This document shows positions 20,316 to 59,481 of a DNA stretch of 64,000 nucleotides, piece by piece. Each line of letters begins with the position of its first letter. Position 1 is the first letter of the stretch. Where the stretch lies: positions 742,099-806,098 of the forward strand of contig MEWB01000001.1 of NCBI GenBank assembly GCA_001773215.1, in the 5' to 3' direction. The DNA is from a candidate division WWE3 bacterium RIFOXYC1_FULL_40_10. Its GTDB lineage: Bacteria; Patescibacteriota; WWE3; UBA101185; UBA10185. The position numbers and the translations under genes were made by a program. The notes below the pieces were generated by a model, which saw nothing but the letters and a program-made list of their open reading frames with translations, was not told where the DNA came from and ran no database searches.

Positions 20316-21318
20316 CAGGATCTAAAAGATGATGTTCAATAGTTACTCCCTCCACAGAGTATGCGTAGTCAAGCATTAAAATCATATCCCCTTTTCTATC
20401 GTTACTTCCCAAAACCACTCCTACTACCTCCACTCCATTGTTCTTTGCATAAGTTACCAAGCACAATCCAGCTTCCTCAGTATATCCGGTCTTAACCCCA
20501 GCTACTCCTGGATAGCTGGATAACAAGTTCGTTTGATTATACAAAGAAAGATATTTGTGCTTGCTTGTGGCCGGAAGCTCCTTTTCCAAGGTGGCAGCCA
20601 CTTGCTTAAATTTTGGATTCTTAAGGGCATATCGAGTTAAATAAACCAAGTCTCTGGGAGAAGTATAGGAGGCATCATTTAACCCACTAGGATCAGTGAA
20701 ATAACTGTTTTTTAAACCCAACTCCTTGCCCTTTATATTCATCCACTCAACAAAGGTTTTTACATCCCCAGCAACTCCTTCAGCTATGGCATAGGCCGCA
20801 TCATTTCCCGAGTGCAAAACAAGACCATACAAAAGTTCCTCTAAAGTATAAACTTCTCCTTCTGAGATACCCATGGAATTTTCGCCGACTGTAGCGGCGT
20901 ATTCGGAAACAATGATCTCTTGATCCGGCTGCATGTGCTCTAAAGCCACAACGGCAGTGACTATTTTAATTAAACTTGCCAAAGGCCTGCGAGAATCCAA
21001 ATCCTTTTGAAATAAAATACTGCCATCATTGAGTTCCACTATCATCCCCGCCGCTCCATTTATATCAGGTTGCGTCGAAATACCCTTAACTTCCCCGACA
21101 TTCCAACCATCATCAGTAAAATAATCTCCTAATTTTGACGCCGCATATAGGTCAACTGCATCCGGCTGCCTAAACGATTTGACCTTTATTCCTCTCTCGG
21201 CCGGTTTTGTTAAAAATAGTAGATAAAGGGCAAGGCCTACGGAGAATATTACAAAAGAATAGGTGATCAGTGTACTCAAAAGTATTCGTGGCGAGGGGCT
21301 AGTTGGTCCAATTGTCAT
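20308..21318 (-). CDS. D-alanyl-D-alanine carboxypeptidase (PBP5/S11 family)
   Basis: SxxK (ASLIK), SGN (HSGND) and KTG (KTGYT) motifs with an N-terminal TM anchor. Start taken at the internal ATG at 21318 to avoid head-on overlap with the trxA start. Confidence 0.75.
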   Translation of the reverse strand: MTIGPTSPSPRILLSTLITYSFVIFSVGLALYLLFLTKPAERGIKVKSFRQPDAVDLYAASKLGDYFTDDGWNVGEVKGISTQPDINGAAGMIVELNDGSILFQKDLDSRRPLASLIKIVTAVVALEHMQPDQEIIVSEYAATVGENSMGISEGEVYTLEELLYGLVLHSGNDAAYAIAEGVAGDVKTFVEWMNIKGKELGLKNSYFTDPSGLNDASYTSPRDLVYLTRYALKNPKFKQVAATLEKELPATSKHKYLSLYNQTNLLSSYPGVAGVKTGYTEEAGLCLVTYAKNNGVEVVGVVLGSNDRKGDMILMLDYAYSVEGVTIEHHLLDPVN

Positions 21319-21392
21319 ATGCAAATGATATGTTATCATAGATAGTGCTTTACCAGGCAACAATTTTTTTAATTTATTTGGAGATTTAAAAG

Positions 21393-21656
21393 ATGTTAAC
21401 ACTTATTGATTTTTATGCTGATTGGTGTGGACCTTGCAAGATGATGTCACCGGTTTTAGAGAAACTCGAGAAAACTTATTCGGCTAAAGTAGAATTTAAA
21501 AAAGTAGACGTGGAGGCTGATGGGGCTATGTCGGCGAAATTCGGCATTCAAAGTATTCCCACTTTTGTGTTAGTAAAAGATGATAAAGAAATCGATCGGA
21601 GAATGGGCGCCGCACCCGAAGAAGTGATGAAACAGTGGATTAACAGCCACCTATAG
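21393..21656 (+). CDS. trxA: Thioredoxin
   Basis: WCGPC active site, 87 aa. Confidence 0.85.
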   Translation: MLTLIDFYADWCGPCKMMSPVLEKLEKTYSAKVEFKKVDVEADGAMSAKFGIQSIPTFVLVKDDKEIDRRMGAAPEEVMKQWINSHL

Positions 21657-21701: not shown

Positions 21702-22100
21702 TTGAGCATGTATAAGATATTGATCGATGTCACAGGCAGACAACTACTTCTGCAAATGGCGACTATATCGAATGGGGTTGCTTTAGTCATGTCCGGAGAA
21801 GCGGTTGAGTCATCACAATTGATTTTCAAGGAGCTCCGTATCACCCAAGACTACAAGAAGGCAGTTACGGACTTGTTTGAGCAAATTTTGAGACTTGCGA
21901 GGGGTGAACTAACTATTGCAGAAAGCGGCATCGGTGACACTTTGATTACTGTACGCAAGACAGAAGAATTTACCGGGGTGACTAACAAAAAGATTTTTCA
22001 AATGTGCCTTGATAAGAACCCAAACTTTTGTTTTAACCTAACAATGGAGAATCTTTTACCCTTGTTCTGCAATCTTAACAGCTATATCTTAGGAGATTAA
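21702..22100 (+). CDS. Hypothetical soluble protein, member 1 of a tandem trio
   Basis: GGAG RBS. 132 aa. No known motif. Confidence 0.5.
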   Translation: MSMYKILIDVTGRQLLLQMATISNGVALVMSGEAVESSQLIFKELRITQDYKKAVTDLFEQILRLARGELTIAESGIGDTLITVRKTEEFTGVTNKKIFQMCLDKNPNFCFNLTMENLLPLFCNLNSYILGD

Positions 22101-22102
22101 AA

Positions 22103-22447
22103 ATGCTTGTTACTACTGATAGTAATTACTTCTTTTGGGGAGAAAAACGCCACAAGGGTTACTTAATAAAGCTAGGTGTGATGGAAGACTATTACACCGC
22201 CTTGATTACAAACGAAGAAGATGTAGAACTGTTCGTTGATGAAGTGAGTACGAAGAGCGAACTCGACAATCCGGTGTGGGAAGCCAAATTAGGTGAAACC
22301 CTCACGGTGACGAAAGTTCCCAATATCTTAAATAAAGGACCAATCTACATTGTAAAGGGAAACACTACACACCAAATAGGGATCGACCAAGCAGTGTTTG
22401 ACGAGTTCATCAAAGAGCTTATCGAATACTTTGGTACCACAACCTAA
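22103..22447 (+). CDS. Hypothetical soluble protein, member 2 of the trio
   Basis: Starts 3 nt after the previous stop. C-terminal ...IGIDQAVFDEFIKELIEYFGTTT. Confidence 0.5.
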   Translation: MLVTTDSNYFFWGEKRHKGYLIKLGVMEDYYTALITNEEDVELFVDEVSTKSELDNPVWEAKLGETLTVTKVPNILNKGPIYIVKGNTTHQIGIDQAVFDEFIKELIEYFGTTT

Positions 22448-22462
22448 CAAGCTGGAGGAAAA

Positions 22463-22804
22463 ATGAGTGGGATTATTGAGGACCGAGGTCTTTCTACGGC
22501 GGCACTTGAGTGGCGTGCGACACGCAAGGGATTTGTGATTCAGATAGTTGGGATAGACCATCAGGCCGAGTTTGTTATTAAACCGGATGACGTTGACACA
22601 GCGACACGCTTGGTAAGGGATATGATGGAGGGAAATGTTCTTGATGTAAAAGGCCGGCTGATTATCGCACCGGCGTTGGGAGAACTTCCGGAAGGGATCT
22701 TCCTTTTCATAATAATGATAAATGATACGTTTTTTGTTGTATCTGCAGATACACTGTTGATGGTGGCTAGAGACCTTGCCAAATACTTCGAACTCGATAC
22801 TTAG
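22463..22804 (+). CDS. Hypothetical soluble protein, member 3 of the trio
   Basis: GGAGG RBS. C-terminal ...VVSADTLLMVARDLAKYFELDT resembles member 2. Confidence 0.5.
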   Translation: MSGIIEDRGLSTAALEWRATRKGFVIQIVGIDHQAEFVIKPDDVDTATRLVRDMMEGNVLDVKGRLIIAPALGELPEGIFLFIIMINDTFFVVSADTLLMVARDLAKYFELDT

Positions 22805-22879: not shown

Positions 22880-23959
22880 ATGCCCGTTCGAATAGCAATT
22901 AACGGTTTTGGCCGTATCGGTAGATCCTCTTTCAAAATAGCCTTTGATAACCCCAAGGCTGAAATAGTTGCGATAAATGATCTCACAAATCCCCGCGTAC
23001 TGGCTCACTTACTAAAGTACGATACTGCCTATGGAATTTTTGACAAAGAAATTTATATGGAGGAAGACGGAAAAATAGTTCAGCTAAGCGATTACCACGG
23101 TGAAACCGATTTTTACACAACAACAGCTAAAGAAACCTATTTAGTAGTGGGCGGGAAAAAAACACTGGTAACTTCAATTCCAGATCCCACTCAACTCCCA
23201 TGGAAAGATCTAAATGTGGATATCGTTTTGGAGTGTACAGGCCGATATGTGGAAGGTGACGCCGCATTGGATCACCTTAAGGCAGGCGCAAAAAAAGTAG
23301 TGGTATCAGCACCAACAAAAGGAGGGACAATTCCAACATTTGTATTGGGAGCTAATCAAGATCAATATTTAGGCCAAAACGCATTTTCTAACGCTTCGTG
23401 CACCACAAATTGCACATCTCCGGTGGTATCTATAATTCATTCTAAATTTAAGGTCTTAAAGGCCATGTTAACCACAGTTCACGCCTTAACATCCGGGCAA
23501 AATTTAGTTGACGGACCTCCCAATCCACGAAAACCCGATTTACGCGAGGGCCGAGCGGCCGGATTTAACATGGTCCCCACTTCCACCGGTGCAGCCAAAG
23601 CTACTGTAGAAACAATCCCGGATCTTAAGGGAAAATTCGACGGAGTCTCCATTAGAGTACCTATTATTACCGGATCTATTACTGATATCGTTATGCTGGT
23701 AGAAAAAAAGACTACTGTAGAGGAAATAAATCAGACCTTCATCGAAGCTAAAGAAAACCCTATATACAAAGGGGTTTTGGATGCAACCTGGGAACCAATA
23801 GTTTCTTCGGACATAATAAAAAGCCACTACTCTGCAATTGTTGATCTGGCCTTTACCAGGGTTGTCGATGGAGACCTAGTAAAAGTTATGGCCTGGTACG
23901 ACAATGAATGGGGATACTCCAACCGCTTGGTTGAAATCGCAATCTTAGCCTGCGAATAG
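22880..23959 (+). CDS. gap: Glyceraldehyde-3-phosphate dehydrogenase
   Basis: NGFGRIGR Rossmann motif, catalytic SCTTNC, 359 aa. Confidence 0.9.
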   Translation: MPVRIAINGFGRIGRSSFKIAFDNPKAEIVAINDLTNPRVLAHLLKYDTAYGIFDKEIYMEEDGKIVQLSDYHGETDFYTTTAKETYLVVGGKKTLVTSIPDPTQLPWKDLNVDIVLECTGRYVEGDAALDHLKAGAKKVVVSAPTKGGTIPTFVLGANQDQYLGQNAFSNASCTTNCTSPVVSIIHSKFKVLKAMLTTVHALTSGQNLVDGPPNPRKPDLREGRAAGFNMVPTSTGAAKATVETIPDLKGKFDGVSIRVPIITGSITDIVMLVEKKTTVEEINQTFIEAKENPIYKGVLDATWEPIVSSDIIKSHYSAIVDLAFTRVVDGDLVKVMAWYDNEWGYSNRLVEIAILACE

Positions 23960-23976: not shown

Positions 23977-24933
23977 ATGAGAAAACTTATAGAAGCTAAC
24001 ATAGAACCAAACACAAAAGTTTTTGTGGCGGCCGATTTGGATGTGGTTATTAAAAACGGAAAGATCCTAGAAAGCTATCGCCTTGAAAGCCTGCTACCAA
24101 CTTTAAACTTTATCATAAAAGCTGGGGCCACCCCGGTGATAGGCGGACATATGGGACAACCACATGGAGAGTATGATGAGGAACTATCAACGAAACACTT
24201 GCTACCTTTTTTTGATGAAAATCTAGGTAAGCACAGTTTTGAATTACTGGAAAATTTGCGCTTTGATAAACATGAGGAAGAAAATAATTTAGAGTACGCG
24301 AAAGAAATTGCACACGAATGCCTAATTTATGTGAACGAAAACTTCTCGACATCTCACAGAAAAAATGCTTCGATAACTCAAATCCCTACTTTTTTGCCTT
24401 CTTATGCAGGGTTGCATCTTCAGCAGGAAATTGAAACCTTAGAAGGATTGGCAAAGAATCCAAATAGACCTTTAGTTGCAATAGTAGGTGGAAAAAAGCT
24501 GGAAAGTAAAATCCCCGCGATAAACAAATTAATCAACATTTCCGACTTCGTACTCGTAGGAGGGAAACTCGGGTTGGACTGGACCGGAGAAATTCCCCAA
24601 AATTTAGTGCTTGCCCAAGACTATGTTGACGTTAGCAAAGATATTGGTGAAGAAACAATTACCCTATTTAAAGACAAGATAAAGTCAGCTAAAACAATAG
24701 TATGGGCGGGACCTATGGGACAGTTTGAGGACTCAAGATACACAAGAGGAAATTCGGCAGTTGCTGAAGCCATAATAGACTCCGGTGCATTCTCCATTGT
24801 GGGCGGCGGAGACACTATAGCAGCATTAGATTCCTTGAAGCTACTGGATAAAATGGGCTTTGTCTCAACAGGAGGTGGTGCCATGCTGGAATTAATAGCT
24901 ACGGGTACTATTTCGGGGATTGAGGTGTTATGA
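23977..24933 (+). CDS. pgk: Phosphoglycerate kinase (compact, 318 aa)
   Basis: N-domain GGHMGQP, ENLRF, STSHR. C-domain GGKKLESKI, GGGDT, STGGGA. Confidence 0.85.
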   Translation: MRKLIEANIEPNTKVFVAADLDVVIKNGKILESYRLESLLPTLNFIIKAGATPVIGGHMGQPHGEYDEELSTKHLLPFFDENLGKHSFELLENLRFDKHEEENNLEYAKEIAHECLIYVNENFSTSHRKNASITQIPTFLPSYAGLHLQQEIETLEGLAKNPNRPLVAIVGGKKLESKIPAINKLINISDFVLVGGKLGLDWTGEIPQNLVLAQDYVDVSKDIGEETITLFKDKIKSAKTIVWAGPMGQFEDSRYTRGNSAVAEAIIDSGAFSIVGGGDTIAALDSLKLLDKMGFVSTGGGAMLELIATGTISGIEVL

Positions 24934-25202
24934 AAAAACAAAATACCCTGACCATATCAAAAAGTAACAAGTGTATCGGCTGTGAGATGTGTGTGTTCGA
25001 AACACAGAGGCAGCTTAAAAGAATTGGCTTAGAAGGATCCTTAATTAGGATATTTAGAGATAATGATATAGGGAAAGATTCATCATATAAGGTATTGATC
25101 GATCCTACTATCGTGGCTTGTGACTTAGAAAAAATTGCTGCAATTTGCCCAAACCAAGTTTTAGTTATTTCCAGTGAGGACACCGATGAATTTGTCATCT
25201 AA
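24930..25202 (+). CDS. Ferredoxin-like small Fe-S protein (CxxCxxC...CP)
   Basis: The start overlaps the pgk stop (ATGA). CIGCEMC plus a distal AAICP, typical of a single [4Fe-4S] ferredoxin. Confidence 0.5.
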   Translation: MKKQNTLTISKSNKCIGCEMCVFETQRQLKRIGLEGSLIRIFRDNDIGKDSSYKVLIDPTIVACDLEKIAAICPNQVLVISSEDTDEFVI

Positions 25203-26025
25203 AAAAGTTTTAGTAATCAACCTGGAAACCGAAGAGACCGAGGTTAAAACGTACAAAGAGTTGCACAAATTCGTGGGAGGCATAGGACTTGGGCTTAAGT
25301 TATATGAATTGTATTACAAACAAGACCCTTTAATATTCTCCATAGGACCGCTAAACGGATTTTACCCATTCGCTTCCAAAACCTCGGTTTTGCTTAATAA
25401 CGAAGGCGTGATCGAGGATCTATATATCGGAGGCAACTTATCAACCAGAATAAGATTCTGCGGACTTGATTCGATAGTAATAATAGGAACAGCCAAAAAT
25501 AATCTAGTGGTGGATATACTCAATACAAACGTAAAGTTTGAAAAGGGCGTTCCTATAGAAAATCTCGGATTACCAGGTAAAAGAAGCGTTCTTAGGGTTT
25601 TTGAAAACAAAGCCTTGCTCGAGGACTATTTTCAAACCCCGCATGACTTTTTATATAAAACTCTAAAAAACAAACGAGTAGATGGGGTTGTGGTAACAGG
25701 TTCGGAAGTTTTTTCAGTAGATAAATTCTCAGATTACACTGTTCTATACAATAAAATATTGTCCCAGAGAGATGAGATAAGCATTAAGGCCGATACATAT
25801 CCATCGTGCAGTAACTGCCCTCGGGGTTGTCAAAGATCCATAAAAGGGGAAATTGGAGGTAATGTACTTACTCACTGCCTAGTGACGTGCCAGTTTGCAG
25901 ACTCAATTTTCAATAATATAGGAATAGTCTTTTCATGCCTCAACACACTGGGGTATGATTATAATCACGAGGATTTGGAAAATGCCCCATCGCTCGTTGA
26001 AGAATTACTTAAAAAGCTGTCCTAA
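25174..26025 (+). CDS. Truncated aldehyde:ferredoxin oxidoreductase-like protein (AOR N-domain plus Cys motif, lacking the pterin domains)
   Basis: INLETEETEVKTY / VGGIGLGLKLY / IGPLNG / GGNLSTRIRFCGLDSIVIIG parallels the AOR N-domain. CSNCPRGC parallels the AOR cluster motif CxxCxxxC. Only 283 aa; an alternative ATG lies at 25186. Confidence 0.5.
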   Translation: MRTPMNLSSKKVLVINLETEETEVKTYKELHKFVGGIGLGLKLYELYYKQDPLIFSIGPLNGFYPFASKTSVLLNNEGVIEDLYIGGNLSTRIRFCGLDSIVIIGTAKNNLVVDILNTNVKFEKGVPIENLGLPGKRSVLRVFENKALLEDYFQTPHDFLYKTLKNKRVDGVVVTGSEVFSVDKFSDYTVLYNKILSQRDEISIKADTYPSCSNCPRGCQRSIKGEIGGNVLTHCLVTCQFADSIFNNIGIVFSCLNTLGYDYNHEDLENAPSLVEELLKKLS

Positions 26026-26027
26026 CA

Positions 26028-26677
26028 TGAAACTGATCACTGCCAACTGGAAAATGAATATGTCCACCGAGGAAGCTCTTGAATGGGCTACACGGTTTCG
26101 TGAAATTATACCCAAGCCTTTGGTGAACTCTAAAGTGATAGTTGCGCCCTCGTTAGTTCATTTGCCTTTAATATTCGAAGTTCTATATAAAACAGGCGTT
26201 GAGTTGGCGGCGCAGGATATCTCGTTATTCGAGAAAGGCGCTCACACGGGAGAAGTTGGCGGCTTTCAACTTAGAGACTTCTGTAAATATTGCATCATTG
26301 GACACAGCGAGAGGAATGAGACAACGGAAACCGTTTTACTGAAAAGGGATGCTTGTCTTTCCTCCGGCTTGACACCAATAATATGCTTCAGCGACAACTC
26401 CTTAGTCAGGATTTTATCCAAGAAAGGTGTTATACTTGCTCGGGAAAATCCTCAAAACATCTCTGTGAACGGTGTATATAGAGAAGATAACATTGAGGCT
26501 ATAGAAAGAATATTCTCTGAACTCCCCAAAGAGACCCAAGTAATATACGGCGGATCCGTAAATAGGCAAAACGCACCGAAATTGGCGCATATTTCGGGAT
26601 TAGAAGGCGTCCTGGTAGGCAATGCCAGTTTGGATCCTCAACATTTTGTAGAGATAATTGAAATATTTGATAAATGA
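26028..26677 (+). CDS. tpiA: Triosephosphate isomerase
   Basis: ANWKMN, IGHSERN, GGS...NA motifs. Start taken at the MKLITANWKMN methionine 3 nt after the upstream stop, rather than the track start at 25955. Confidence 0.85.
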
Positions 26678-27741
26678 AATACTGCGATTTGCATAAACAA
26701 CTTAATACAACTGAAAAACCACAGGGAAGCGGTACTAAACTGTATATTTCATTAGCAATCATTACAGCAGTTCTTTTGGCTTTTGGAGGTTTTATACTAA
26801 AGGGAAATATTAGACCCATATCAATTATTGCGAACGCGACAATGGTGAATCTTAAAGAAACCGATGGCAGAACCAATATACTAATTGTAGGTTCGGATAG
26901 GCGCGATTACGGAACTTTGGCTGAAAACCCGGTGTTAACAGATACTATACTAGTTGCCTCAATTGGAAAGTTCGACAAAGACGTGGTGCTGATATCTATT
27001 CCCAGGGACTTGTGGGTAGAACTTCCGGGCGGAGGGCAAGAAAAAGTTAATTCGGTATATGCGATTGAAACAGCTCGCGGAAATGACGGAATGGCTAATT
27101 TAGACAAAGTTATTGAGGATATCCTTGGAATGCCTATTCACTATCATACAATGGTTACTTTTGGGCTTTTTCAGGAAATTATAGACATTTTGGGAGGAGT
27201 CGAAGTGGAGGTGGCAAATTCATTCACCGACTACTATTACCCTGTAGAAGGCAAAGAAAATGCACCAATGAACGAACGCTACGAAACAATAAGCTTTAAA
27301 CAAGGCACTGCTACTATGGACGGGGAAACCGCACTTAAATTTGTTCGATCCAGAAAGGGCGATAACGATGAGGGAACTGACTTTGCGCGAGCTAAAAGGC
27401 AACAGGCGGTGATAGCCTCAATTAAGAAGAAAGCGTTAAATTTGGGTACACTTTTAAATCCAATAAAACTTAAAGGACTTTACGATGCCTATTCCTCGAA
27501 TGTTGAAACAAACATGGATTTTGGAACGATAGAAAATTTTTACTTACTTTCCCAACAAATAAATTTCGAAAAGATAGTCTCTATTGTTTTAGATGATAGA
27601 AGCTCAGCTATTGAAGGCGGGTTGTTGTATGCACCTGCAGATACCACTCTTTATGGCGGGAAGTATGTGCTAATACCTCAAACCGGAGATTACTCTCAAA
27701 TACACGCCTACATACAAAAATACCTATTTGGCGGAAAGTAG
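26674..27741 (+). CDS. LytR-CpsA-Psr (LCP) family cell-envelope phosphotransferase
   Basis: N-terminal TM. NILIVGSDRR...TDTILVASI...ISIPRDLWV...KVNSVYA...GGV LCP core. Confidence 0.8.
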   Translation: MKYCDLHKQLNTTEKPQGSGTKLYISLAIITAVLLAFGGFILKGNIRPISIIANATMVNLKETDGRTNILIVGSDRRDYGTLAENPVLTDTILVASIGKFDKDVVLISIPRDLWVELPGGGQEKVNSVYAIETARGNDGMANLDKVIEDILGMPIHYHTMVTFGLFQEIIDILGGVEVEVANSFTDYYYPVEGKENAPMNERYETISFKQGTATMDGETALKFVRSRKGDNDEGTDFARAKRQQAVIASIKKKALNLGTLLNPIKLKGLYDAYSSNVETNMDFGTIENFYLLSQQINFEKIVSIVLDDRSSAIEGGLLYAPADTTLYGGKYVLIPQTGDYSQIHAYIQKYLFGGK

Positions 27742-34919: not shown

Positions 34920-37900
34920 GTGAAAAATTTATTTCTGACCTTTCTAATTAGTATATTTTCTGTTGCATTTTTTTTCACTTGTACAAATATTACTTGGGCT
35001 GCACCTTCGTTAACTTCAGTGGGTACTATTTCATCAGGGCGCACGTATTTTGGCTTTCCAACAGAGATTGGTGATGTAAACGGAGATGGGTATGATGATA
35101 TCGTCGCTAGTGACTACAATTTTTCTACCGCCGGAATGGTGAATATTTATTATGGGGGAACCTCCTTTAATAATACCCTTGATGCTTCAATTCTAGGAGA
35201 AGAAAGCTCTAATTACTTCGGGTTCGCGGAATCCGCAGCTATCTCACTAAAGGATATCACTAACGACGGTAAATCGGAACTTCTGGCGGGTGCCTGGGGT
35301 TATTCGTCTTCTAATGGACGTTTTTATGCCTTTAACAATAAAGATTTCGTACCAGGACTTTCGGCAAACACGGCTGAATTACAAGCTACAGGAAATGGTA
35401 CGGACCGATATTATTTTGGGATGGGTATTGGTGCGGGAGATTTTGATGGGGATGGTGATAATGACATAGTTATTGCCGCACCTACTTCGGTTGCAAATCA
35501 AGGTGCTATTCAGCTGTTCCAAAATAACAACGGTGTTATTGATTTTGATAACCGGTGGGGTTTCACAACAGTCACCAATGTGAGATTAATGGGGTATATG
35601 AATGGAGTCAAGATAGGTGATTTTAACGGTGATGGTAGAGACGATATATTGACCGGAGATAACTACTCTTATGCGGGTTACATCGGAAAGGATTTAGATA
35701 TATTTCTCAGCGTAGGCGATGGCTCCTTAACCGAAGTTAACTTCTCAACAGCCGCTGCCGGGGATTACTTTGGCAGAGCTGGTACTTTTCACACGGGAGA
35801 CATTAATAACGACGGCAAGGACGATTTTTGCGCGGGCGCCTATTTGTATAATTCATACGCCGGTAGAATTACCTGTTGGTATGGTAGGGAAACATTTCTT
35901 TCCTCCTACGCTTACAACACAGCAGATGTGTTTATCAACGGAGGGGCTGCTAATGATTCTTTCGGCCGAGCTGTTGATATTGCAGATGTAAATAACGACG
36001 GTTATCCGGATCTTATGGTAGGTGCCTATCAAGCCTACGCCCCAGCCGGTTCAACACACGGTAAGGCTTATGTCTACAAAAACACCGGCACCGGTTCCGG
36101 TATAGATACAAGCTCCCCATGGATTTCAGAAATTAAAACCTCGGGCAATGCATATTTTGGCAGCGATATTAACTCGGGGGATATTGATGCTGACGGCTGG
36201 AAAGATATAGCAGTTTTGCAAGGCAACGGAGCCAGCGTACTAAATATGTACGAGATGTCACATGGGTCACCTTCAATTACCTTTATCAGTACAACAACAG
36301 GCGGAAACCTTGTTGGAACCTCCTCCGACAGCGATGCAAGTTACACACTAGCCGGAGTTGGATGGAGCACCTCAAACACATTACCCGGAACGTGGACTGC
36401 CTGTACTGCTAATGACAGTACTTTTGACGAATCAACCGAAGCCTTTACATGTGATCTATCTGCGTATGCAAACGGAACATATTCACTGTATTTTAGAAGT
36501 TACGACCAAAACTCCGTATATATGTCGACCCAGCTTTACGCAAGTGACTCAATAACAGTAGATAAGAATCCACCCAATGTATTATCGCTTAGTCCGGCTT
36601 CTGCCGGAATTATATCCACAGCTACTCCAACCCTTACCGGTACATTAAACAAAACTGGAGATTGCCGCGCCAGTACTACCGACGAAAGTTACGATAACAT
36701 GAGTGATAATGTTGACTGTACCGGCGATGGAACTGTAAGTGCAAGCTGCGCGATTCCCGCCTTGGGTTTAGATGGCTCGAAAACCTTGTACATTTCTTGT
36801 CAGGATGATTCCGGTTATAAAGACTCCACTGCAACAAACGAGGAAATTATATATACACTAGATACACTTGCACCATCAATAATCATGGATAGCCTTACGA
36901 CCCCCACAAGTGACGCAACTACCTCCTTCACGGGCACCGCAAATGACGTAACAAGCCCTATCCAAACGGTTGAGTATCAAGTGGATACTACATCAGGAAG
37001 TTGGATAGCGTGTACTGCCTATGACAGTACCTTTGACGAAGCTTCTGAAACTGTCACCTGTACAATTTCACCGGCACTAAGCGATGGGATACATACAATT
37101 TATTTTCGAGCTCAAGACGACGCAGGGCACTACGTTGTAGTATCAAACTACGGCGAGGAACAAATCACCATCGATACTATAGCCCCAACACCCGATTCAA
37201 CCCGGCAAAAAATAGGAACCAAGGACGAGCCAAAACAGTTAAAAGGCATTGGAACTGAGGTTATAAAAAAGAACTCCAAGAAATTCAAATTGTATTTTGA
37301 TCTAAAAGATGCGACTTCATCCATAGAGCATTACATAATTTCCCAGAACAGAGACTTTGAGGACTCAAGCTGGAAAGCTTTCGATGGAGATGCGAGCGTT
37401 GAATTCAAGGCCGACGGCAAAAAACAGCTTTACATAAGATTTAAAGATGCGGCCGGCAATATATCCGATACGTTCGAACAAACTATCCAGATAGACACCC
37501 AACCGCCGGAACTACAAGTAACTAAAATAGGCACTTTCGAACCGGATTTTACAGAACACAAAAACTATTTTTACTCAGAGAATTTAGTGAGAATAGCTGG
37601 AACTGTTGAAAAAGATGCAGATTTGCGAGTTTACGTGAACAACGGATTAATTGAGGACATTCAAGATATAAATGAGCTCGGAAATTGGGAGGTTACACAC
37701 GATTTTAACTTTGGAAAAAGTGAAGTGCGTTTTGAGGCTGAAGATGACTTTAAAAATATTACCAAGCTCGAATTTAACTTAACAATCGATTCTATAGCCC
37801 AAACTACCCAGCAAGCATTAGGAACTTTTACCCAAATGGTTGAACCTTCACTTCAACCTGAAGAACTAGAACCAGCGGGGGACACTGTGGAAATAAAAAC

Positions 37901-37985
37901 TGAGGTACAGGGAACTGCCACAGCGACACCAGTAAAAAAGACCTTCTGGCAGAATATTTTAGGCTGGTTTGGCATCAAATATTAG
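34920..37985 (+). CDS. Large secreted surface protein with FG-GAP/integrin-alpha-like beta-propeller repeats and Ig-like domains
   Basis: GTG start, then a signal peptide. At least six DxDGDGxxD / GDxNxDGxxD calcium-binding FG-GAP repeats. Duplicated ~150-aa C-terminal modules (WTACTANDSTFDE / WIACTAYDSTFDE). Confidence 0.7.
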   Translation: MKNLFLTFLISIFSVAFFFTCTNITWAAPSLTSVGTISSGRTYFGFPTEIGDVNGDGYDDIVASDYNFSTAGMVNIYYGGTSFNNTLDASILGEESSNYFGFAESAAISLKDITNDGKSELLAGAWGYSSSNGRFYAFNNKDFVPGLSANTAELQATGNGTDRYYFGMGIGAGDFDGDGDNDIVIAAPTSVANQGAIQLFQNNNGVIDFDNRWGFTTVTNVRLMGYMNGVKIGDFNGDGRDDILTGDNYSYAGYIGKDLDIFLSVGDGSLTEVNFSTAAAGDYFGRAGTFHTGDINNDGKDDFCAGAYLYNSYAGRITCWYGRETFLSSYAYNTADVFINGGAANDSFGRAVDIADVNNDGYPDLMVGAYQAYAPAGSTHGKAYVYKNTGTGSGIDTSSPWISEIKTSGNAYFGSDINSGDIDADGWKDIAVLQGNGASVLNMYEMSHGSPSITFISTTTGGNLVGTSSDSDASYTLAGVGWSTSNTLPGTWTACTANDSTFDESTEAFTCDLSAYANGTYSLYFRSYDQNSVYMSTQLYASDSITVDKNPPNVLSLSPASAGIISTATPTLTGTLNKTGDCRASTTDESYDNMSDNVDCTGDGTVSASCAIPALGLDGSKTLYISCQDDSGYKDSTATNEEIIYTLDTLAPSIIMDSLTTPTSDATTSFTGTANDVTSPIQTVEYQVDTTSGSWIACTAYDSTFDEASETVTCTISPALSDGIHTIYFRAQDDAGHYVVVSNYGEEQITIDTIAPTPDSTRQKIGTKDEPKQLKGIGTEVIKKNSKKFKLYFDLKDATSSIEHYIISQNRDFEDSSWKAFDGDASVEFKADGKKQLYIRFKDAAGNISDTFEQTIQIDTQPPELQVTKIGTFEPDFTEHKNYFYSENLVRIAGTVEKDADLRVYVNNGLIEDIQDINELGNWEVTHDFNFGKSEVRFEAEDDFKNITKLEFNLTIDSIAQTTQQALGTFTQMVEPSLQPEELEPAGDTVEIKTEVQGTATATPVKKTFWQNILGWFGIKY

Positions 37986-43277: not shown

Positions 43278-45680
43278 TTAACCCCCGCTAGCTCTTAAAT
43301 ATCTGGACAAAGTAATGTGCTGCCGCGACGCTGTGGACCCCCCAAGCGAAATGGGAGGGCTCATTGGTAAGGCATCCGTCCAATAATCCAACGAGCCTGA
43401 GTCCAAAGTGTGACTTGTAGGATAGGTGACCACGATATCATCAAAGTAAACGTAAGCGTTGGTTGTGATAGCTCCTGTCCGGGCACTTAGAGAAACCGTT
43501 ATCTGTCCGTAAGCGGTTATCGGAGTGAATGGAAGTTGTAAAAGTTGCCAGTCGGTTGTTTCTGTGGCCTGAACATAGGTTATCGTTCCATCATCGTAAT
43601 CTATAGTTAATCTTGGTAATTGATGGGTTCCTGAATAATAATTCGCTGAGGCTATCTTGCACCATATCCCTACTATCATGGTTTTGTTTTGGATATTTCC
43701 CGTAGGGATAGTAAACTGCCAATCATTTAACGAATTAGTGCTGTTTTCGGGCTTGTAACGTATAGCCAACCCATCCGCCGTATGACAAGTGGTATCAGTA
43801 AGCCCTGCACCTGTGGACTGGGTTACTCCATACTTAAAATAGCAGGTGTGGTTGTTAGCCACCTGGTCGTTGGTATCAATTTTTATATAAGAACCAAGAG
43901 TCATGCCAGAATAATTATTCACATCATTTGTAGAACCCAAAATACAGTTCTTAACGATAACTCTCTGGTAGGTAGACGAGGTTATATCTATATTGTTCGT
44001 TCCTGCAGACTTGTTTCCCCATTCGCAATCCTCAAATACCGTGTCAATAGTATTTACCGTAAGTGATACATTGCTCGTTGCTTTATCAGAATGACAACGA
44101 GTAAACGTGTTTAAAATAAATGTACCGTAGATTCTGTAACCACCCGCTCCCCCACATATTCTCATATCTGTAAAAGTACAGTTTACGCAGTTGCTCAGAA
44201 GAAGCGGGTCGTATGTACCCGAACCAGAACCACCGCTCTGAATGTTACTTATTGTAGAATTAAGGGCATAACTGATGTAGAACGTGGCATTAGCACCAAG
44301 GTTCCCCGCATAAATATGATCAATGGTTCCATTAAATATCGTCAAACCTTTAGAGTTTCCCCAGTCCCCTTGTCTCATAAATATATACTGGTAGTGGGTT
44401 CCTGTCATGGCTGTTGTAACAGCGGTTACTGCTGCATAGCTAACCAAATTGGGTCCCAACGTAGTAGTTCTTTGCATAATCAAAGTGTCTATTTCGTAAG
44501 GGGTAAAGCGGGTTGTGTCTATTGCCCCATATGAGGTACACTGCAACATCACACAACCAGAATCAACAAATACACCACTAACTTTCCACGTGTGAAATTG
44601 ACCGCCCGCCATTGAACCAGTGCCATTAAGTTTTATTCCACACCTGCTTGCTCTGGTAAAATTCCAAACAACAAAATCTGCATAGTGCAGATAAGTAAGA
44701 TTAGCAACGGTTGTTATAGATGTGCCCGATATAGAAGAAATTGTTGGTGACTCATAGCCGACATTTAAGCTGTTAGCACCCAGAACATCAATCACATCTG
44801 TGGCTACCCATGATGCCGACATATCATCGGTAGTAGTGATAATCTTTTGGGAGGCTGCAGCGTTAGAAGCCAGGGTTGTATAATAACTTGTCGGCTTCTC
44901 CCCATACAATGAGATCTCATTTTGTATTGGAACTGCATAATTAACTCCAAAATAATGATTAGCGATATTTATAATAGCTTGCTGAGCATAAGGTATTCTG
45001 TTTGTACTATCACCAACCTCAAGCCGTAAATCTCTTGACCAATAAAGACTGGTGACCGTAAGAGTGTAACTTGCTGCTGGTGTACTATCCCACACAAGAT
45101 GCGTATTAACTCCTGTAGCGACTGTCGTCGCGGTGATGCTCTGGTCAATGGTAAAAACTTGCCCGTCACGAAAAACAATATTGTCTCCCGACGAATAAGA
45201 GGTCGTCGCTGTGAGAACAACGCCATAACTATACCCCGAACGAAGGTAAACTTGGCCCGAAGCACTTGCTTGTATCCACCATCTCCATGTAGAAGCACCG
45301 GTTGTAACAGCAGCAGCGGTGCCAAGCTCAAAATAATGACCCATTAAGTATCCAGCCACATAACCACTATGAGTACTTAAAATATCAGATTGTGTTGCTG
45401 TTACTGTAGCCCCTGCTACATCTCCCCATGCACCACCAGAGTATTGTTGAAGTTTCACAGTTACCGTAGTACCTGCCGCAAAAGCTCCGTTTGTGGATAA
45501 TGCTATAAACACACCTTCGCAATCTCCTGCTTCATTCGGGGTAAATTCTTGAGTCCTTACTGTGCCTATATCAGTTCCCGCAGAAGCCTCAGACATATTC
45601 GGTGCCCACGAAAAAGCCACCACTTTTTGTGGTGTTAAGGTCGAAAAAGCTCCTCCCGCTTTATAGAAAATTGTTGCCAT
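43278..45680 (-). CDS. Large Thr/Ser/Gly-rich right-handed beta-helix (pectate-lyase-fold-like) protein without a signal peptide
   Basis: 800 aa. Parallel beta-helix-type repeats (NCTFTDMRICGG..., IVKNCILGSTND...). No N-terminal hydrophobic segment. Located 1 nt upstream of tatC. Confidence 0.5.
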   Translation of the reverse strand: MATIFYKAGGAFSTLTPQKVVAFSWAPNMSEASAGTDIGTVRTQEFTPNEAGDCEGVFIALSTNGAFAAGTTVTVKLQQYSGGAWGDVAGATVTATQSDILSTHSGYVAGYLMGHYFELGTAAAVTTGASTWRWWIQASASGQVYLRSGYSYGVVLTATTSYSSGDNIVFRDGQVFTIDQSITATTVATGVNTHLVWDSTPAASYTLTVTSLYWSRDLRLEVGDSTNRIPYAQQAIINIANHYFGVNYAVPIQNEISLYGEKPTSYYTTLASNAAASQKIITTTDDMSASWVATDVIDVLGANSLNVGYESPTISSISGTSITTVANLTYLHYADFVVWNFTRASRCGIKLNGTGSMAGGQFHTWKVSGVFVDSGCVMLQCTSYGAIDTTRFTPYEIDTLIMQRTTTLGPNLVSYAAVTAVTTAMTGTHYQYIFMRQGDWGNSKGLTIFNGTIDHIYAGNLGANATFYISYALNSTISNIQSGGSGSGTYDPLLLSNCVNCTFTDMRICGGAGGYRIYGTFILNTFTRCHSDKATSNVSLTVNTIDTVFEDCEWGNKSAGTNNIDITSSTYQRVIVKNCILGSTNDVNNYSGMTLGSYIKIDTNDQVANNHTCYFKYGVTQSTGAGLTDTTCHTADGLAIRYKPENSTNSLNDWQFTIPTGNIQNKTMIVGIWCKIASANYYSGTHQLPRLTIDYDDGTITYVQATETTDWQLLQLPFTPITAYGQITVSLSARTGAITTNAYVYFDDIVVTYPTSHTLDSGSLDYWTDALPMSPPISLGGSTASRQHITLSRYLRASGG

Positions 45681-55453: not shown

Positions 55454-55858
55454 ATGGATCAAAACCTGCCTATTAATCCTGACATAAGTAATCCGGTGTT
55501 GCCTTTGGGCCACCGGGTTATCCAGCCTGCTAAGGTTGAAGCCGCCGGATATATGCCTGTTAGTGTAGAGAGCGTAAGTTCTATATCGGCAGAACAAAAC
55601 AGTGAAGCGCAAAGAACTCCCGAGGCATTCACCCTACCTAATCAAGCACTGGCTCCATCAGTTGACCAACCGGCACCTATACCTCCCCAGCAAACACAGC
55701 AGCAGCCTGCCGTTTCGAACGTAGTAAATACTACTGATCAAGTTTTGCCTGAGCATAAGCTAATAACAAGCGATACCCTAACAACCCTAGCAGACCAAGA
55801 GGAACAAGAGTTTATTGATAAAGTAGAGGAGGCTCATGGAGTTGGAAGCCACAATTAA
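55454..55858 (+). CDS. Low-complexity Pro/Gln-rich hypothetical protein (134 aa)
   Basis: PAPIPPQQTQQQPAVS segment. The 3' end overlaps the start of the coupling-ATPase gene by 23 nt. Confidence 0.4.
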   Translation: MDQNLPINPDISNPVLPLGHRVIQPAKVEAAGYMPVSVESVSSISAEQNSEAQRTPEAFTLPNQALAPSVDQPAPIPPQQTQQQPAVSNVVNTTDQVLPEHKLITSDTLTTLADQEEQEFIDKVEEAHGVGSHN

Positions 55859-58238
55859 TTCCTGGATAAGCTACTTTTTTATGGCATTAATTGCCGGGAT
55901 AGTATTTTTTTCGATCATACTGTTTTTTGCCTGGAGAAAAAAGAAGAAAAACGAAACCGCATACCAATACAACCTTACCTTTTTGCACATTAAAGTACCC
56001 AGTACAAACGAGTATGAAATAAAAATAGCCGAAACCTTTTTTTCCAATTTGATCGGTTTGAAAAAAAGTTTTTGGCAGTCGTTATTTTCTGATCAATACA
56101 GAATTTCCTTTGAAATAGTATCCAAAAGTGACGGTATCGGATTTTACGTGGTAGTACCCGATGAAATTGCCGCTCTTGTAGAAAAACAAATCAACGCAGC
56201 TTACCCTGAGGCCGAGATAGATATCGTTAATCCCCAGGAAATTTGGGACCGGGGCGAATATACAAAAGTAGCGGAATTAAAGCTGAAAGGAGCAAATTAT
56301 TATCCAATAAAAGATCATGAAGACATCAAAAATGATCCCCTAAAGGGTATTACTTCGGCAATGAGTAAGATGGGGAATGACGAAGTGTTAGCCCTGCAAT
56401 ATATAATCGCCCCAGCCAGTGACGCGTGGAGACTAGCCGGACGCAGTTTTGTTACCAGGATTAAAAACTCAGCGGCCAACCCTGAAAAAAAGACTAACGT
56501 TGACACGTCCTTTTTAGAAAAAATTGAAAAAAAGATCGCAAATCCCGGATTTTATACAAAAATAAGGATAGTATCCATCGCCAAGGATCCGTTTGCAGCG
56601 GAAACCTTGATTCAAAACGCTATTAATTCATTCGAGCAGTTTTCCGATGTTAACTACAATAAATTCGTTAGGAGAACCCCTTTTTCGAATAAAAGATGGA
56701 TTAACAATTTCGTGTATAGAAAAATGGATCCGATAGAAATTGCCATCCCTGTGGTTGGCACAATTTTGTTCACAAATGTATCAGTTCTAAACACTGTAGA
56801 GCTTGCCACAATATTCCACATGCCTAATAAAGACACCGGCACACCCAAAATTTTGTGGCTGACTGCCAGAAAAGCCTCTGCCCCGGCAAATGTTCCCTCG
56901 GAAGGATTGTATCTTGGCAAAAATATATTTAGAGGCGTGGAAAAACCTATTTTCATGAATGAAAAGGACCGTTCGCGGCATTTTTACATAATTGGACAAA
57001 CCGGTACCGGTAAATCCGTGCTAATGAAGTGGTTGGCACTGCAGGATATAAAAAATGGGGAGGGTTTGGCGATAATCGATCCCCATGGTACAGACATTTC
57101 AGACCTGTTACCTCAAATACCACGCGAAAGAATTGATGACGTTATCTATTTCGACGCATCCGACACAGAACGCCCTCTGGGAATTAACTTACTGGAAGCT
57201 CATTCCGAAGAAGAGAAGCACATGGTCATTAATTCATTTATTGCTTTATTGTACAAACTGTATGATCCCAACCACCAAGGCATTATGGGACCACAGTTAG
57301 AGCGTTCAATTCGTAACTGCATGCTCACTGCAATGGCAGACCCTACAAGTACAATGATCGACGTGATGCGCTTGCTAATTGACGGCAATTATTACAAAAA
57401 ATTCTTGCCGATGCTTAACGATCCTTTGGTTACAAGATATTGGACGGATGAAATGGCCAATACCAGCGACTATCACAAAAGTGAAAAAATGGGCTACATG
57501 GTATCTAAGTTTGATCGCTTTGTAACCGACAGAACCATGAGAAATATAATAGGTCAACCAACCTCAGCCTTTAATTTTCCTGATATTATGGCTCAAAAGA
57601 AAATCCTTCTTATCGATCTTGCTAAAGGTAAGCTTGGAGAAGAAAATTCCACGTTCTTAGGCCTTCTGCTTGTACCACGCATTTTGGCAGCTGCCCTGCA
57701 ACGCCACAAATTAATAGGAACGGATTTTCCTAATTTCTATTTATACGTAGACGAATTCCAAAACTTTGCTACTCCCGACTTTGCGACAATTCTATCCGAG
57801 GCCAGAAAATATAAATTGAATCTTATTGTGGGACACCAGTTTATAGATCAATTAGAAGACGATATTAAAGAGGCAATATTTGGAAACGTGGGGACGATGG
57901 CAACTTTTAGAGTTGGCTCTGATGACGCGGAATTCCTAAAAACTCAGTTTGAGCCAACCTTTACCGACAGAGACTTAATAAATCTCCCGATATTTAACAG
58001 CTACATGAAACTGCTCATTGACGGCCACCCTTCTCCACCATTCTCATTAGTTGTAGATACTGAAAAAACATTTAGCCAACCAAGTGATCCCGATGTAGAA
58101 AAAACCATAATCCAAAATTCCCGAATGAAATACGGCAAAAGCGCGGAGGAAGTTGAAAAGTTCATTACCAAAGCCGCGGGAATAGAGGAACCGAAAGTAG
58201 AGGAGTTCCCTGCTTTACGACCGAAGCTGCCATTCTAA
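55836..58238 (+). CDS. TraD/TraG/VirD4-like (type IV coupling protein-like) membrane ATPase
   Basis: N-terminal TM. Walker A IIGQTGTGKS then AIIDPHG. Walker B LYVDEFQNF then KYKLNLIVGHQFIDQLEDDIKEAIFGNVGTMATFRVGSDD, paralleling the TraD C-terminal NBD (LFIDEL...GLRVVAGLQSTSQLDDVYG). Confidence 0.65.
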   Translation: MELEATINSWISYFFMALIAGIVFFSIILFFAWRKKKKNETAYQYNLTFLHIKVPSTNEYEIKIAETFFSNLIGLKKSFWQSLFSDQYRISFEIVSKSDGIGFYVVVPDEIAALVEKQINAAYPEAEIDIVNPQEIWDRGEYTKVAELKLKGANYYPIKDHEDIKNDPLKGITSAMSKMGNDEVLALQYIIAPASDAWRLAGRSFVTRIKNSAANPEKKTNVDTSFLEKIEKKIANPGFYTKIRIVSIAKDPFAAETLIQNAINSFEQFSDVNYNKFVRRTPFSNKRWINNFVYRKMDPIEIAIPVVGTILFTNVSVLNTVELATIFHMPNKDTGTPKILWLTARKASAPANVPSEGLYLGKNIFRGVEKPIFMNEKDRSRHFYIIGQTGTGKSVLMKWLALQDIKNGEGLAIIDPHGTDISDLLPQIPRERIDDVIYFDASDTERPLGINLLEAHSEEEKHMVINSFIALLYKLYDPNHQGIMGPQLERSIRNCMLTAMADPTSTMIDVMRLLIDGNYYKKFLPMLNDPLVTRYWTDEMANTSDYHKSEKMGYMVSKFDRFVTDRTMRNIIGQPTSAFNFPDIMAQKKILLIDLAKGKLGEENSTFLGLLLVPRILAAALQRHKLIGTDFPNFYLYVDEFQNFATPDFATILSEARKYKLNLIVGHQFIDQLEDDIKEAIFGNVGTMATFRVGSDDAEFLKTQFEPTFTDRDLINLPIFNSYMKLLIDGHPSPPFSLVVDTEKTFSQPSDPDVEKTIIQNSRMKYGKSAEEVEKFITKAAGIEEPKVEEFPALRPKLPF

Positions 58239-58275: not shown

Positions 58276-59481
58276 ATGTTTAAGCTGCCATTTTTAAATA
58301 AAACTCAAAAATCAGATAGATTTTTAACTATTCACATTAGCACTAGTGAAGTGAAATGCTTAGCCATTTACTGTGAAAACGGGATCTTCAAGATAATTGG
58401 ACATGGCATTGCCGAGCTCGAACCGGGAAATGTAAGAGGCGGGATAATAATAGATAAGGAGAAAGTGGCAACGGCCCTCCAGGACACAATAGAAAAAGCT
58501 ACGGAGCATTCCGAAGAAACCATTTCGGATGTAATTTTTGGTGTGGGAAGCAACCTTTGTACAAGTTTAATGACTACCATACGATCAAAAAGAGCCGCCA
58601 GAACTCCTATCGAAGAAAATGAATTAGAAGACTTATATAGCAAAGTAAACGAAACTGCATTCATTCAAGCCCAAAACGAATTTCTTGAAATTACAGGCGA
58701 TTCTGAGACTGAGCTGGTTTCGATAACCTCTTCAAACGTTTATCTAAAATCCGAAGGCCAAAAAGTGGATTCGTTGATTGGCAAGCCTGCCGGGGTAATT
58801 GAAATAGCTGTGTTCAACTCATACGCTCCAAATTATCACGTTAAAGCTCTTCAACAACTTGCTAAAAAGTGTGAACTTGATATCTTGGCCATCGGATCTG
58901 AACTCTACTCCCTTGTTCAAAATATTATTCAAACTAACAGGGAAACTCTGGATTTCGTAATATTAGACATTGGGACTGACTATACAAATGCTGCTGTTGT
59001 GTTTTCGGGTGGAGTGGTTTCGAACAAGAGTTTGAATATTGGATACTCACACTTTGTTGATGCATTAAATGACCGTATGGGAATAACTGTGGAAGAGTCC
59101 AGAAAGATACTGAGAACTTATTTGGCCGGCGGACTATCCCAATCGGAAGGGTTTGTGGTTTTGGAAGCTCTACGAGACGTGATAGAAGTGTGGCTATTGG
59201 GATTAGAAATGCTATTTAGAGAGTTTTACGGAGTAAAAACTTTCCCATCAAAAATATTTATAACAGGTGCGGGCGCGGATATAAAAGAAATATTGGATTC
59301 TATAAAAACAGAACCATGGACTAAGACTGTACCCTTTAAATCGCCTCCGGTATTTTCTAAACTAAGTTTTTCCGATTTACGGGATATAGTGGATAGCACC
59401 AGTAGGGTAAATAAGTCAGAGTGGGTTTCTGCAGCAAGCCTTGCAGTTATCTATAATGAGATAGGAAATCAAAATGACTAA
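58276..59481 (+). CDS. FtsA/PilM-like actin-fold ATPase
   Basis: Phosphate-1 (LTIHISTSEVKCLAI), connect and phosphate-2 (ILDIGTDYTNAAVVFSGGV) motifs, plus ITGAGA, at FtsA-like spacing. No ftsZ follows. Confidence 0.55.
   Translation: MFKLPFLNKTQKSDRFLTIHISTSEVKCLAIYCENGIFKIIGHGIAELEPGNVRGGIIIDKEKVATALQDTIEKATEHSEETISDVIFGVGSNLCTSLMTTIRSKRAARTPIEENELEDLYSKVNETAFIQAQNEFLEITGDSETELVSITSSNVYLKSEGQKVDSLIGKPAGVIEIAVFNSYAPNYHVKALQQLAKKCELDILAIGSELYSLVQNIIQTNRETLDFVILDIGTDYTNAAVVFSGGVVSNKSLNIGYSHFVDALNDRMGITVEESRKILRTYLAGGLSQSEGFVVLEALRDVIEVWLLGLEMLFREFYGVKTFPSKIFITGAGADIKEILDSIKTEPWTKTVPFKSPPVFSKLSFSDLRDIVDSTSRVNKSEWVSAASLAVIYNEIGNQND

Follow-up and report, generated by a model that had tools for sequence, protein, structure and literature searches.

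A pterin-less derivative of aldehyde:ferredoxin oxidoreductase and its small ferredoxin-like partner in the glycolytic operon of WWE3 bacteria

Members of the aldehyde:ferredoxin oxidoreductase (AOR) family, such as Pyrococcus furiosus AOR (1aor), FOR (1b25), WOR5 (6x1o), BamB (4z3w) and AorB (8c0z), are proteins of ~600 residues that combine a domain 1, a CxxCxxxC…C ligand set, pterin motifs and active-site residues. Two-subunit types (WOR5-S/L, AorA/B, BamC/B and E. coli YdhY/YdhV) are encoded by a gene pair, in which a small Fe-S protein with three or four cluster motifs accompanies the AOR-like protein. Single-cluster [4Fe-4S] ferredoxins of ~80–90 residues with a CxxCxxC…CP pattern (P. 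furiosus/T. maritima type; Fer4_13, Fer4_15) are physiological partners of archaeal AOR enzymes. GAPOR (NF040818) is of AOR-family ancestry and stands in a glycolytic context. The present analysis concerns a window of 64,000 nucleotides (nt), the whole stretch analysed and the reference for all coordinates, on contig MEWB01000001.1 of the candidate division WWE3 bacterium RIFOXYC1_FULL_40_10. There, a glycolytic operon holds two overlapping genes, fdx and mini-AOR, encoding a small ferredoxin-like protein and a shortened AOR-like protein. With a probability of about one half, this pair is a tungsten- and pterin-free [4Fe-4S] electron-transfer module reduced from a two-subunit AOR-type enzyme.

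Domain 1, the ligand set and a neighbouring ferredoxin-type partner gene are common to mini-AOR and the AOR family. With 279 residues, the protein is ~300 residues shorter: it has lost the region from domain 1 to the Cys loop, domains 2 and 3 almost completely, and the C-terminus. Both the pterin motifs and the active-site residues are gone. Because nothing that binds pterin or substrate remains, aldehyde oxidation is excluded and mini-AOR cannot be an aldehyde oxidoreductase. The gene pair recalls the two-subunit types, and fdx aligns over its full length, weakly (E 0.007), with the first ferredoxin module of WOR5-S; it has one cluster motif only, and a complex of the two WWE3 proteins is putative. 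In size and Cys pattern fdx is like the single-cluster ferredoxins, but it scores below the Pfam cutoffs, has a lineage-specific E-x-QRQ…IR core and always has its gene together with, and overlapping, that of mini-AOR. As for GAPOR, family ancestry and glycolytic context are shared, whereas mini-AOR has no specific similarity to it, no catalytic domain, and a normal NAD-type GAPDH and PGK in the same operon. Its nearest relatives of full length, at E 1e-18 to 1e-10, are WWE3-related proteins of 538–554 residues in the same slot, (pgk or gap)–small ferredoxin–AOR-like–lytR–holA. Unlike mini-AOR, they keep a divergent AFOR_C, some are without the cluster Cys, and no tpiA follows.

Architecture of the mini-AOR and its partner

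The features of the pair are the following.

24930..25202, plus strand: fdx, 90-residue one-cluster ferredoxin-like protein (CxGCExC…CP conservation)
25186..26025, plus strand: mini-AOR, 279 residues, pterin-less AOR derivative (AFOR_N match, ATG start)
25195..25770, plus strand: AOR domain 1 of mini-AOR with two small deletions (hhalign and E-INS-i alignment; residues 8–199, GTG numbering)
25807..25830, plus strand: C-S-N-C-P-R-G-C, equivalent of the AOR CxxCxxxC (aligned to Cys288/291/295 of P. furiosus AOR)
25831..26019, plus strand: C-terminal helical segment, corresponding to AOR domain-3 residues ~475–537 (hhalign probability 97.7, E 1.4e-12)

A sequence-only reading of this locus had seen a 90-residue open reading frame (ORF) with a single-cluster ferredoxin signature starting in the pgk stop, an overlapping ORF of 283 residues with an AOR-like N-terminus, and CSNCPRGC at the place of the AOR CxxCxxxC motif. 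All three observations hold. The pgk TGA (24931–24933) shares bases with the fdx ATG at 24930 in an ATGA overlap read from the sequence, and the end of fdx (25202) overlaps the start of mini-AOR, whose stop (26023–26025) is separated by 1 nt from the tpiA ATG at 26027. For mini-AOR, the ORF list gives GTG 25174 (283 residues) as the start; the N-termini of the orthologues (MNLxxKKVL, with M-x-x-x-x-KKVL in all) favour ATG 25186 (279 residues).

In Pfam, residues 11–130 match AFOR_N (PF02730) with E 2.4e-17 and 63.8 bits against a cutoff of 29.8, and AFOR_C (PF01314) has no match at E≤1. In NCBIfam, the generic AOR model alone matches, over the N-terminus. Comparison with full-length AORs by hhalign extends the homology to a complete domain 1, residues 8–199 covering template positions 4–226 (probability 100, E 1.1e-45).

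The ligands were located through the closest full-length relative, the 604-residue AOR P0177, whose alignment with P. furiosus AOR spans the whole length (1aor_A, E 2e-72). Its CFGCPVGC falls on C288, C291 and C295 of 1aor and the Cys of its ‘SLHACLF’ on C494, which are reportedly the four [4Fe-4S] ligands of AOR (Chan et al. 1995). Mapped in this way through P0177 onto 1aor, C212, C215, C219 and C239 of mini-AOR (GTG numbering) thus represent the full AOR ligand set; the E-INS-i alignment places CSNCPRGC likewise. The codon of the fourth ligand, C239, lies at 25888–25890, and that of a mostly conserved fifth Cys at 25936–25938. Two alignments describe the conservation of these positions: A1, with 26 close sequences, and A3, with 71 sequences down to 27% identity. 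In A1, 53 residues are invariant and the Cys of CSNCPRGC are all invariant. In A3, every ligand Cys is invariant but the third of CxxCxxxC, which is at least 90% conserved. The His of a ‘HEDLE’ motif in the C-terminal segment is also invariant.

The last part of the protein is not the stretch that follows CxxCxxxC in full-length AORs. Its C-terminal slice (residues ~220–282) aligns to positions 475–537 of P0177, and tblastn agrees with this domain-3 placing, bringing residues 454–518 of the relative P0167 onto window positions 25864–26049 (E 1.8e-4). Since the domain-3 segment with the fourth ligand is kept behind the Cys loop, mini-AOR is internally deleted, and simple C-terminal truncation is out. 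The earlier description as a truncated AOR without tungstopterin domains is therefore right about the missing pterin and active-site regions and wrong about the truncation, the internal deletions sparing all four ligands. When canonical, intermediate and short forms are aligned by E-INS-i, the losses are two short stretches of domain 1, ~50 residues between domain 1 and the Cys loop, ~185 residues after the Cys loop with the ‘YDYE’, ‘GLD’ and ‘HLD…DQ’ regions (where pterin is bound and the active site lies), and the last 45–60 residues of AOR. The pterin motifs (two DxxGL[CD] and a GRxGxGAVMGSK) and the catalytic Glu and His are those reported for AOR (Chan et al. 1995). Of these, the GRxGxGAVMGSK-type motif of domain 1 is replaced by TPHDFLYK in the window protein and by TTPExFLE in the consensus, the first DxxGLD is deleted, as are the regions around Glu313 and His448, and in the second DxxGL[CD] the Asp is replaced (H-C-L-V-T-C in the window mini-AOR). 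Frameshifted remnants of AFOR_C were found neither in or near the gene nor elsewhere in the 64-kb window. The C-terminal profile alone had no significant match in the PDB.

From 26 close homologues, AlphaFold gave a model with a predicted local confidence (pLDDT) of 67, in which the Fe-S region, below 50, stayed unresolved. An alignment of 71 sequences (down to 27% identity) gave a pLDDT of 94.9 and a predicted TM-score (pTM) of 0.93, with no low-confidence segment. It has the AOR fold: in Foldseek, 1aor_A is matched with E 1.8e-15 and all nine significant matches are AOR-family structures. Because these matches are all AOR-family, nearly every residue of mini-AOR is placed as its counterpart in full AOR. 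The model implies, short of proof, that the four Cys stand ready for cluster binding.

In fdx, the Cys codons are at 24972–24974, 24981–24983, 24990–24992 and 25146–25148, the last followed by Pro, giving a putative ligand set C15, C18, C21 and C73-P74 (CxxCxxC…CP) in 90 residues. The window protein scores E 0.03–0.11 on Fer4 models, below all Pfam cutoffs. The family is clearer. The upstream ORF was taken from 72 related loci, 22 sequences forming alignment A4, and these loci share the pattern C-x-G-C-E-x-C … QRQ … IR … D..P … CP..V. The four Cys are at least 90% conserved across 73 sequences; C15, G17, C18, C21 and C73 are invariant in A4 (n=22). An extra Cys of the window protein (VAC) is not conserved among relatives. 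Fer4 is matched by 19 of the 22 orthologues (best E 8.7e-6) and the single-cluster model Fer4_15 by 10 (best 1e-4). Against the PDB, the family profile finds as its sole near-full-length matches, over positions 9–77, the WOR5 Fe-S subunit (6x6u_B and 6x1o_B), with weak E-values of 0.007–0.008; the AOR-associated subunits 9mqx_E and 8c0z_C (the latter E 0.37) stand lower in the list. This weak similarity fits a small subunit of a two-subunit AOR-type enzyme that may have been cut down to one cluster.

Conservation of the pair and its longer and shorter relatives

A word-indexed search returned 281 homologues of mini-AOR, the best 120 of which are all of 254–309 residues with AFOR_N alone; source names include ‘candidate division WWE3’ and ‘Patescibacteria group’. 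In an exhaustive search among representatives at 50% identity, ~45 full-length short forms down to ~28% identity are followed by the 538–554-residue proteins and then by ~600-residue AORs. In a scan of one genome per GTDB species, the short form occurs in 70 WWE3 loci, including the complete genome CP006914.1 of WWE3 RAAC2 (L015). A literature search found no published description of the pair, which is known to databases by domain name only: ‘AOR N-terminal domain-containing protein’ at NCBI. The Joint Genome Institute (JGI) label ‘aldehyde:ferredoxin oxidoreductase’ on ~280-residue members (P0002, P0004, P0006 and others) is an over-annotation and would wrongly add aldehyde oxidation and a need for tungsten to metabolic reconstructions of WWE3/Katanobacteria.

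Searches by tblastn with the window proteins recover the block trx–gap–pgk–fdx–miniAOR–tpiA–lytR–holA–srt, thioredoxin first, in almost all loci. Next to mini-AOR, fdx is found in 69 of the 70; pgk lies directly upstream of the pair in 62; and tpiA follows in 68, the remaining two ending at contig ends. Of 64 loci measured, 62 have the fdx stop overlapping the mini-AOR ATG or no more than 20 nt from it (median −11 nt); the spacing from the mini-AOR stop to tpiA is ~0 nt, and the mini-AOR ORF is intact, with 276–310 residues, in 63 of the 64, the other being cut by a contig end. The invariant core of the operon is fdx–miniAOR–tpiA. The operon is without pgk in L020, L025, L034, L048, L075, L071 and L087 (gap–fdx–miniAOR–tpiA); L074 reads trx–fdx–miniAOR–tpiA, with neither gap nor pgk, and L037 has no trx, gap or pgk match upstream of fdx.

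Selection was estimated as pairwise omega (dN/dS) by NG86, with 13–32 pairs per gene. The medians are as follows.

miniAOR: 0.059
fdx: 0.046
gap: 0.044
pgk: 0.059
lytR: 0.057
tpiA: 0.126

Purifying selection on mini-AOR and fdx is as strong as on the glycolytic enzymes, the values being approximate. With ~70 species carrying the pair and an omega of ~0.06, the gene is, as was first supposed, intact, translationally coupled and no pseudogene.

In related contigs, the slot of mini-AOR is taken by longer AOR-like genes. The locus of P0166 (538 residues) reads pgk–[79-residue ferredoxin]–AOR-like–lytR–holA…S20–MurJ, that of P0167 (550 residues; L089 7001–8653) UvrD–gap–…–[78-residue ferredoxin]–AOR-like–lytR–holA–srt…PilO/N–S20, and those of P0170 and P0175 (L091 4102–5751) ferredoxin–AOR-like–lytR. 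These four proteins (538–554 residues) combine AFOR_N with a divergent AFOR_C. The cluster Cys are kept in P0166 and P0170; CxxCxxxC and the fourth Cys are lost in P0167, P0171 and P0175, and the small partners of P0167 and P0175 keep CxxCxxC…CP. At the other end, the 215-residue P0172 (L092 5001–5648, GCA_026396615.1) follows pgk and a 79-residue ferredoxin and keeps CxxCxxxC…C. In forms of 198–220 residues, domain 1 is shortened further; P0169 and P0172 retain the four Cys, P0173 and P0180 do not. Sizes at the locus thus run from ~600 through ~550 and ~280 to ~215 residues, and what persists is the N-terminal half of domain 1, mostly the cluster ligands, the C-terminal helices and the ferredoxin partner. 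From these comparisons, mini-AOR is best regarded as a stable derivative of longer AOR-like genes by a reductive series. Full-length genes at the locus in relatives had been named in advance as a sign of decay; such genes do occur, of 538–554 residues, but they show where the short form comes from. The series is a useful model of stepwise domain loss at one locus (550, 280 and 215 residues), and mini-AOR shows cleanly how a metalloenzyme can be pared down in nature to its presumed electron-transfer core, with ~300 residues and the cofactor gone, the AOR fold kept and selection as strong as on the glycolytic enzymes.

Descent from GAPOR is not supported. Against NF040818, mini-AOR has no match at E≤1 and its full-length relatives score 18–31 bits versus a cutoff of 1300. 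These relatives reach E 1e-4 to 1e-8 on GAPOR_Arch versus 1e-18 to 1e-46 on the generic AOR model; there is no GAPOR-specific affinity, and P0177 aligns fully with P. furiosus AOR. The proposal of a GAPOR-type relic kept as a mini Fe-S protein survives as an AOR-family relic with a ferredoxin partner and finds no support for its GAPOR origin.

Possible roles of the pair

The electron-transfer reading builds on what is seen of homology, fold and architecture, of the conserved ligands, and of synteny and purifying selection; that the proteins bind clusters, associate with each other and transfer electrons, and with which partners, is what we infer. The ancestor would have consisted of a small Fe-S subunit and a catalytic subunit, shrunk by reductive evolution. 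The larger protein retains AOR domain 1 and exactly the four AOR cluster Cys, the parts binding tungstopterin and substrate being deleted, and the smaller one a single CxxCxxC…CP, putative [4Fe-4S] site. Translational coupling would yield the two proteins in equal amounts; their docking may resemble that of AOR on its ferredoxin or Fe-S subunit, with electrons passed one at a time from cluster to cluster, so that the pair would work like the end of an AOR at which the cluster meets ferredoxin. Expressed along with the core glycolytic operon, it might act, in the manner of a ferredoxin, as carrier or adaptor for the few enzymes of WWE3 fermenters that depend on ferredoxin, such as pyruvate:ferredoxin oxidoreductase (PFOR) and group 3b hydrogenase. 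WWE3 RAAC2 is a fermenter with an Embden–Meyerhof–Parnas pathway, PFOR, ADP-forming acetyl-CoA synthetase and a 3b NiFe hydrogenase, and its electron carriers include a protein termed ‘ferredoxin oxidoreductase-like’ (Kantor et al. 2013, PMC3812714). The pair is a plausible ferredoxin system for the RAAC2 PFOR and hydrogenase, and may be the main one of minimal WWE3 fermenters. Twenty other ORFs of the window were scanned with Pfam (the ten largest, seven lying upstream and the three that separate trx from gap), and none is a PFOR, hydrogenase, molybdenum cofactor or tungstate gene.

Several points weigh against this role. Since the Cys are lost in P0167, P0171 and P0175, an AOR-like protein can persist here without its cluster. 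The resemblance of fdx to AOR-associated Fe-S subunits is weak (E 0.007), and the omega values are approximate because dS is ~1.5, near saturation. A domain of ~200 residues kept to hold one cluster is uneconomical in a genome of ~0.9 Mb. The invariant polar residues of domain 1 (S68-K69-T70, E81-D82, R92, D99, GLPGK) are more than a passive scaffold seems to need and hint at the binding of a ligand or partner. So large a domain 1 may leave room for a binding, regulatory or catalytic role with the triose-phosphate enzymes.

Such a role could be that of a sensor of redox state, iron or oxygen, or of a regulatory or scaffolding subunit of the lower-glycolysis module, in which the cluster or clusters would signal the redox state of the cell and domain 1 would bind GAPDH, PGK, TPI or thioredoxin and tune flux, in place of a catabolic electron carrier. 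The fixed place inside trx–gap–pgk–…–tpiA (62–69 of 70 loci), tightly coupled to tpiA, speaks for it, as do the many invariant, surface-type polar residues of domain 1 and the persistence of Cys-less 550-residue relatives, which would fit binding independent of a cluster. However, inheritance can preserve gene order in a single lineage with no functional link behind it; where the longer forms occur, lytR and not tpiA comes after the pair, and pgk or gap may be missing. The pair has neither a DNA-binding nor a known sensor domain, and its four ligands and ferredoxin partner, the most persistent features of the size series, favour electron transfer. A sensor or regulator is rather unlikely, if worth keeping in mind. 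The pair might also still be an enzyme, in which the cluster and a vestigial pterin-phosphate surface (SKT, GG) bind a phosphorylated triose or another small molecule for a tungsten-free, ferredoxin-linked triose-phosphate chemistry. The SK(T) and GG motifs are at least 90% conserved in the 71 sequences, at alignment positions that presumably line the pterin-phosphate/Mg site of P. furiosus AOR (Arg76, Asn93), and both the operon context and strong purifying selection along the whole length agree with such a function. Yet all four cluster ligands are Cys, leaving no open Fe site, the AOR active-site regions (Glu313, His448) are deleted, and the operon already has a complete NAD-type GAPDH, PGK and TPI; to our knowledge, a tungsten-free AOR-derived enzyme of the triose-phosphate steps has no precedent. 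New chemistry is thus improbable.

A further idea, doubtful as it stands, makes the pair no generic electron carrier but a dedicated tungsten-free, ferredoxin-linked component of the GAPDH–PGK–TPI core, which might dock on GAPDH or TPI to divert or sense reducing power derived from triose phosphates, or bind a phosphorylated triose at the vestigial pterin-phosphate site. If true, the most conserved metabolic module of Patescibacteria would have an accessory not known before, assembled from what is left of a tungstoenzyme. A possible link of the pair to the triose-phosphate steps comes from gene order and is suggestive; the operon context with tpiA is limited to one lineage and not kept in the longer-form contigs, where tpiA is absent. 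TIM, GAPDH and PGK form a near-universal core of metabolism in the candidate phyla radiation (CPR), in an account that does not mention the fdx/mini-AOR pair (Jaffe et al. 2020, PMC7304191). The fixed place in the gap–pgk–tpiA operon gives a testable way into how reducing equivalents are balanced in CPR bacteria. The pair is of interest to those who work on tungstoenzymes, on the evolution of Fe-S proteins and on the metabolism of the CPR.

Two further explanations carry little weight. In a split AOR, pterin domains encoded elsewhere in the genome would assemble in trans into a tungsten or molybdenum enzyme; several members bear the JGI label cited above, and the search for AFOR_C covered the 64-kb window. 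That search found no AFOR_C-like sequence within the window, the domain-3 segment with the fourth ligand is supplied in cis, spliced directly behind the CxxCxxxC loop, mini-AOR is modelled with confidence as a compact protein that stands by itself, and the pterin-phosphate motif of domain 1 is lost. As far as we know, CPR bacteria are generally without cofactor biosynthesis, another argument against this very improbable arrangement. That mini-AOR is a decaying pseudogene of a full-length AOR could be imagined from the longer AOR-like genes in the same slot of related contigs. It is excluded by purifying selection and intact ORFs: 276–310 residues in 63 of 64 loci, an omega of 0.059 equal to that of pgk, 53 invariant residues across 26 sequences and a conserved translational coupling. 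A role like that of ferredoxin:thioredoxin reductase, raised by the upstream trx, was set aside, as the conserved Cys include no extra pair for a redox-active disulfide.

Neighbouring genes in the window

The other genes of the block are the following.

21393..21656, plus strand: trx, thioredoxin with WCGPC (PF00085, E 1.8e-26), upstream place kept in most related loci
22880..23959, plus strand: gap, NAD-type GAPDH, 359 residues (Gp_dh_N E 3e-32, Gp_dh_C E 1e-49)
23977..24933, plus strand: pgk, short, 318 residues (PF00162, E 3.8e-79)
26027..26677, plus strand: tpiA, 216 residues (PF00121, E 5e-41; top PDB match 7r7m_A, E 4.6e-60)
26674..27741, plus strand: lytR (LytR_cpsA_psr), conserved downstream neighbour by synteny (PF03816, E 6.9e-35), also beside the 538–554-residue forms

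The best promoter-like site near trx is at 21312–21339, and no plus-strand terminator-like site was found between gap and srt in the window. Between trx and gap, positions 21702–22804 hold three ORFs of 132, 114 and 113 residues, all without Pfam match, the second and third dissimilar to each other. In many related loci (e.g. L001–L005, L008–L017), unlike the window, the trx–gap spacing is less than ~50 nt, and the three ORFs may be a lineage-specific insertion. The gap–pgk spacer of the window is 17 nt; many WWE3 loci (L007, L018, L021, L027, L035, L044, L050 and others) have an extra 0.4–2.6 kb there.

The glycolytic enzymes of the WWE3 lineage appear shortened. The window PGK has 318 residues versus 379 positions in the Pfam model, which it matches in three stretches, and its WWE3 relatives have 320–344. 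The window TIM has 216 residues, as has its closest solved relative, 7r7m_A; most TIMs of ~250 residues align mainly over residues 3–145. Some Katanobacteria TIMs group with archaeal TIMs (Jaffe et al. 2020, PMC7304191). Four further large ORFs were noted at 55836–58238, 43278–45680, 59474–60997 and 34920–37985. Among their products are an 800-residue protein with HerA (DUF87) and TraG-D_C, resembling a coupling ATPase of type IV secretion or conjugation, an 800-residue and a 507-residue protein without Pfam match, and a 1021-residue protein with FG-GAP repeats and Big_13.

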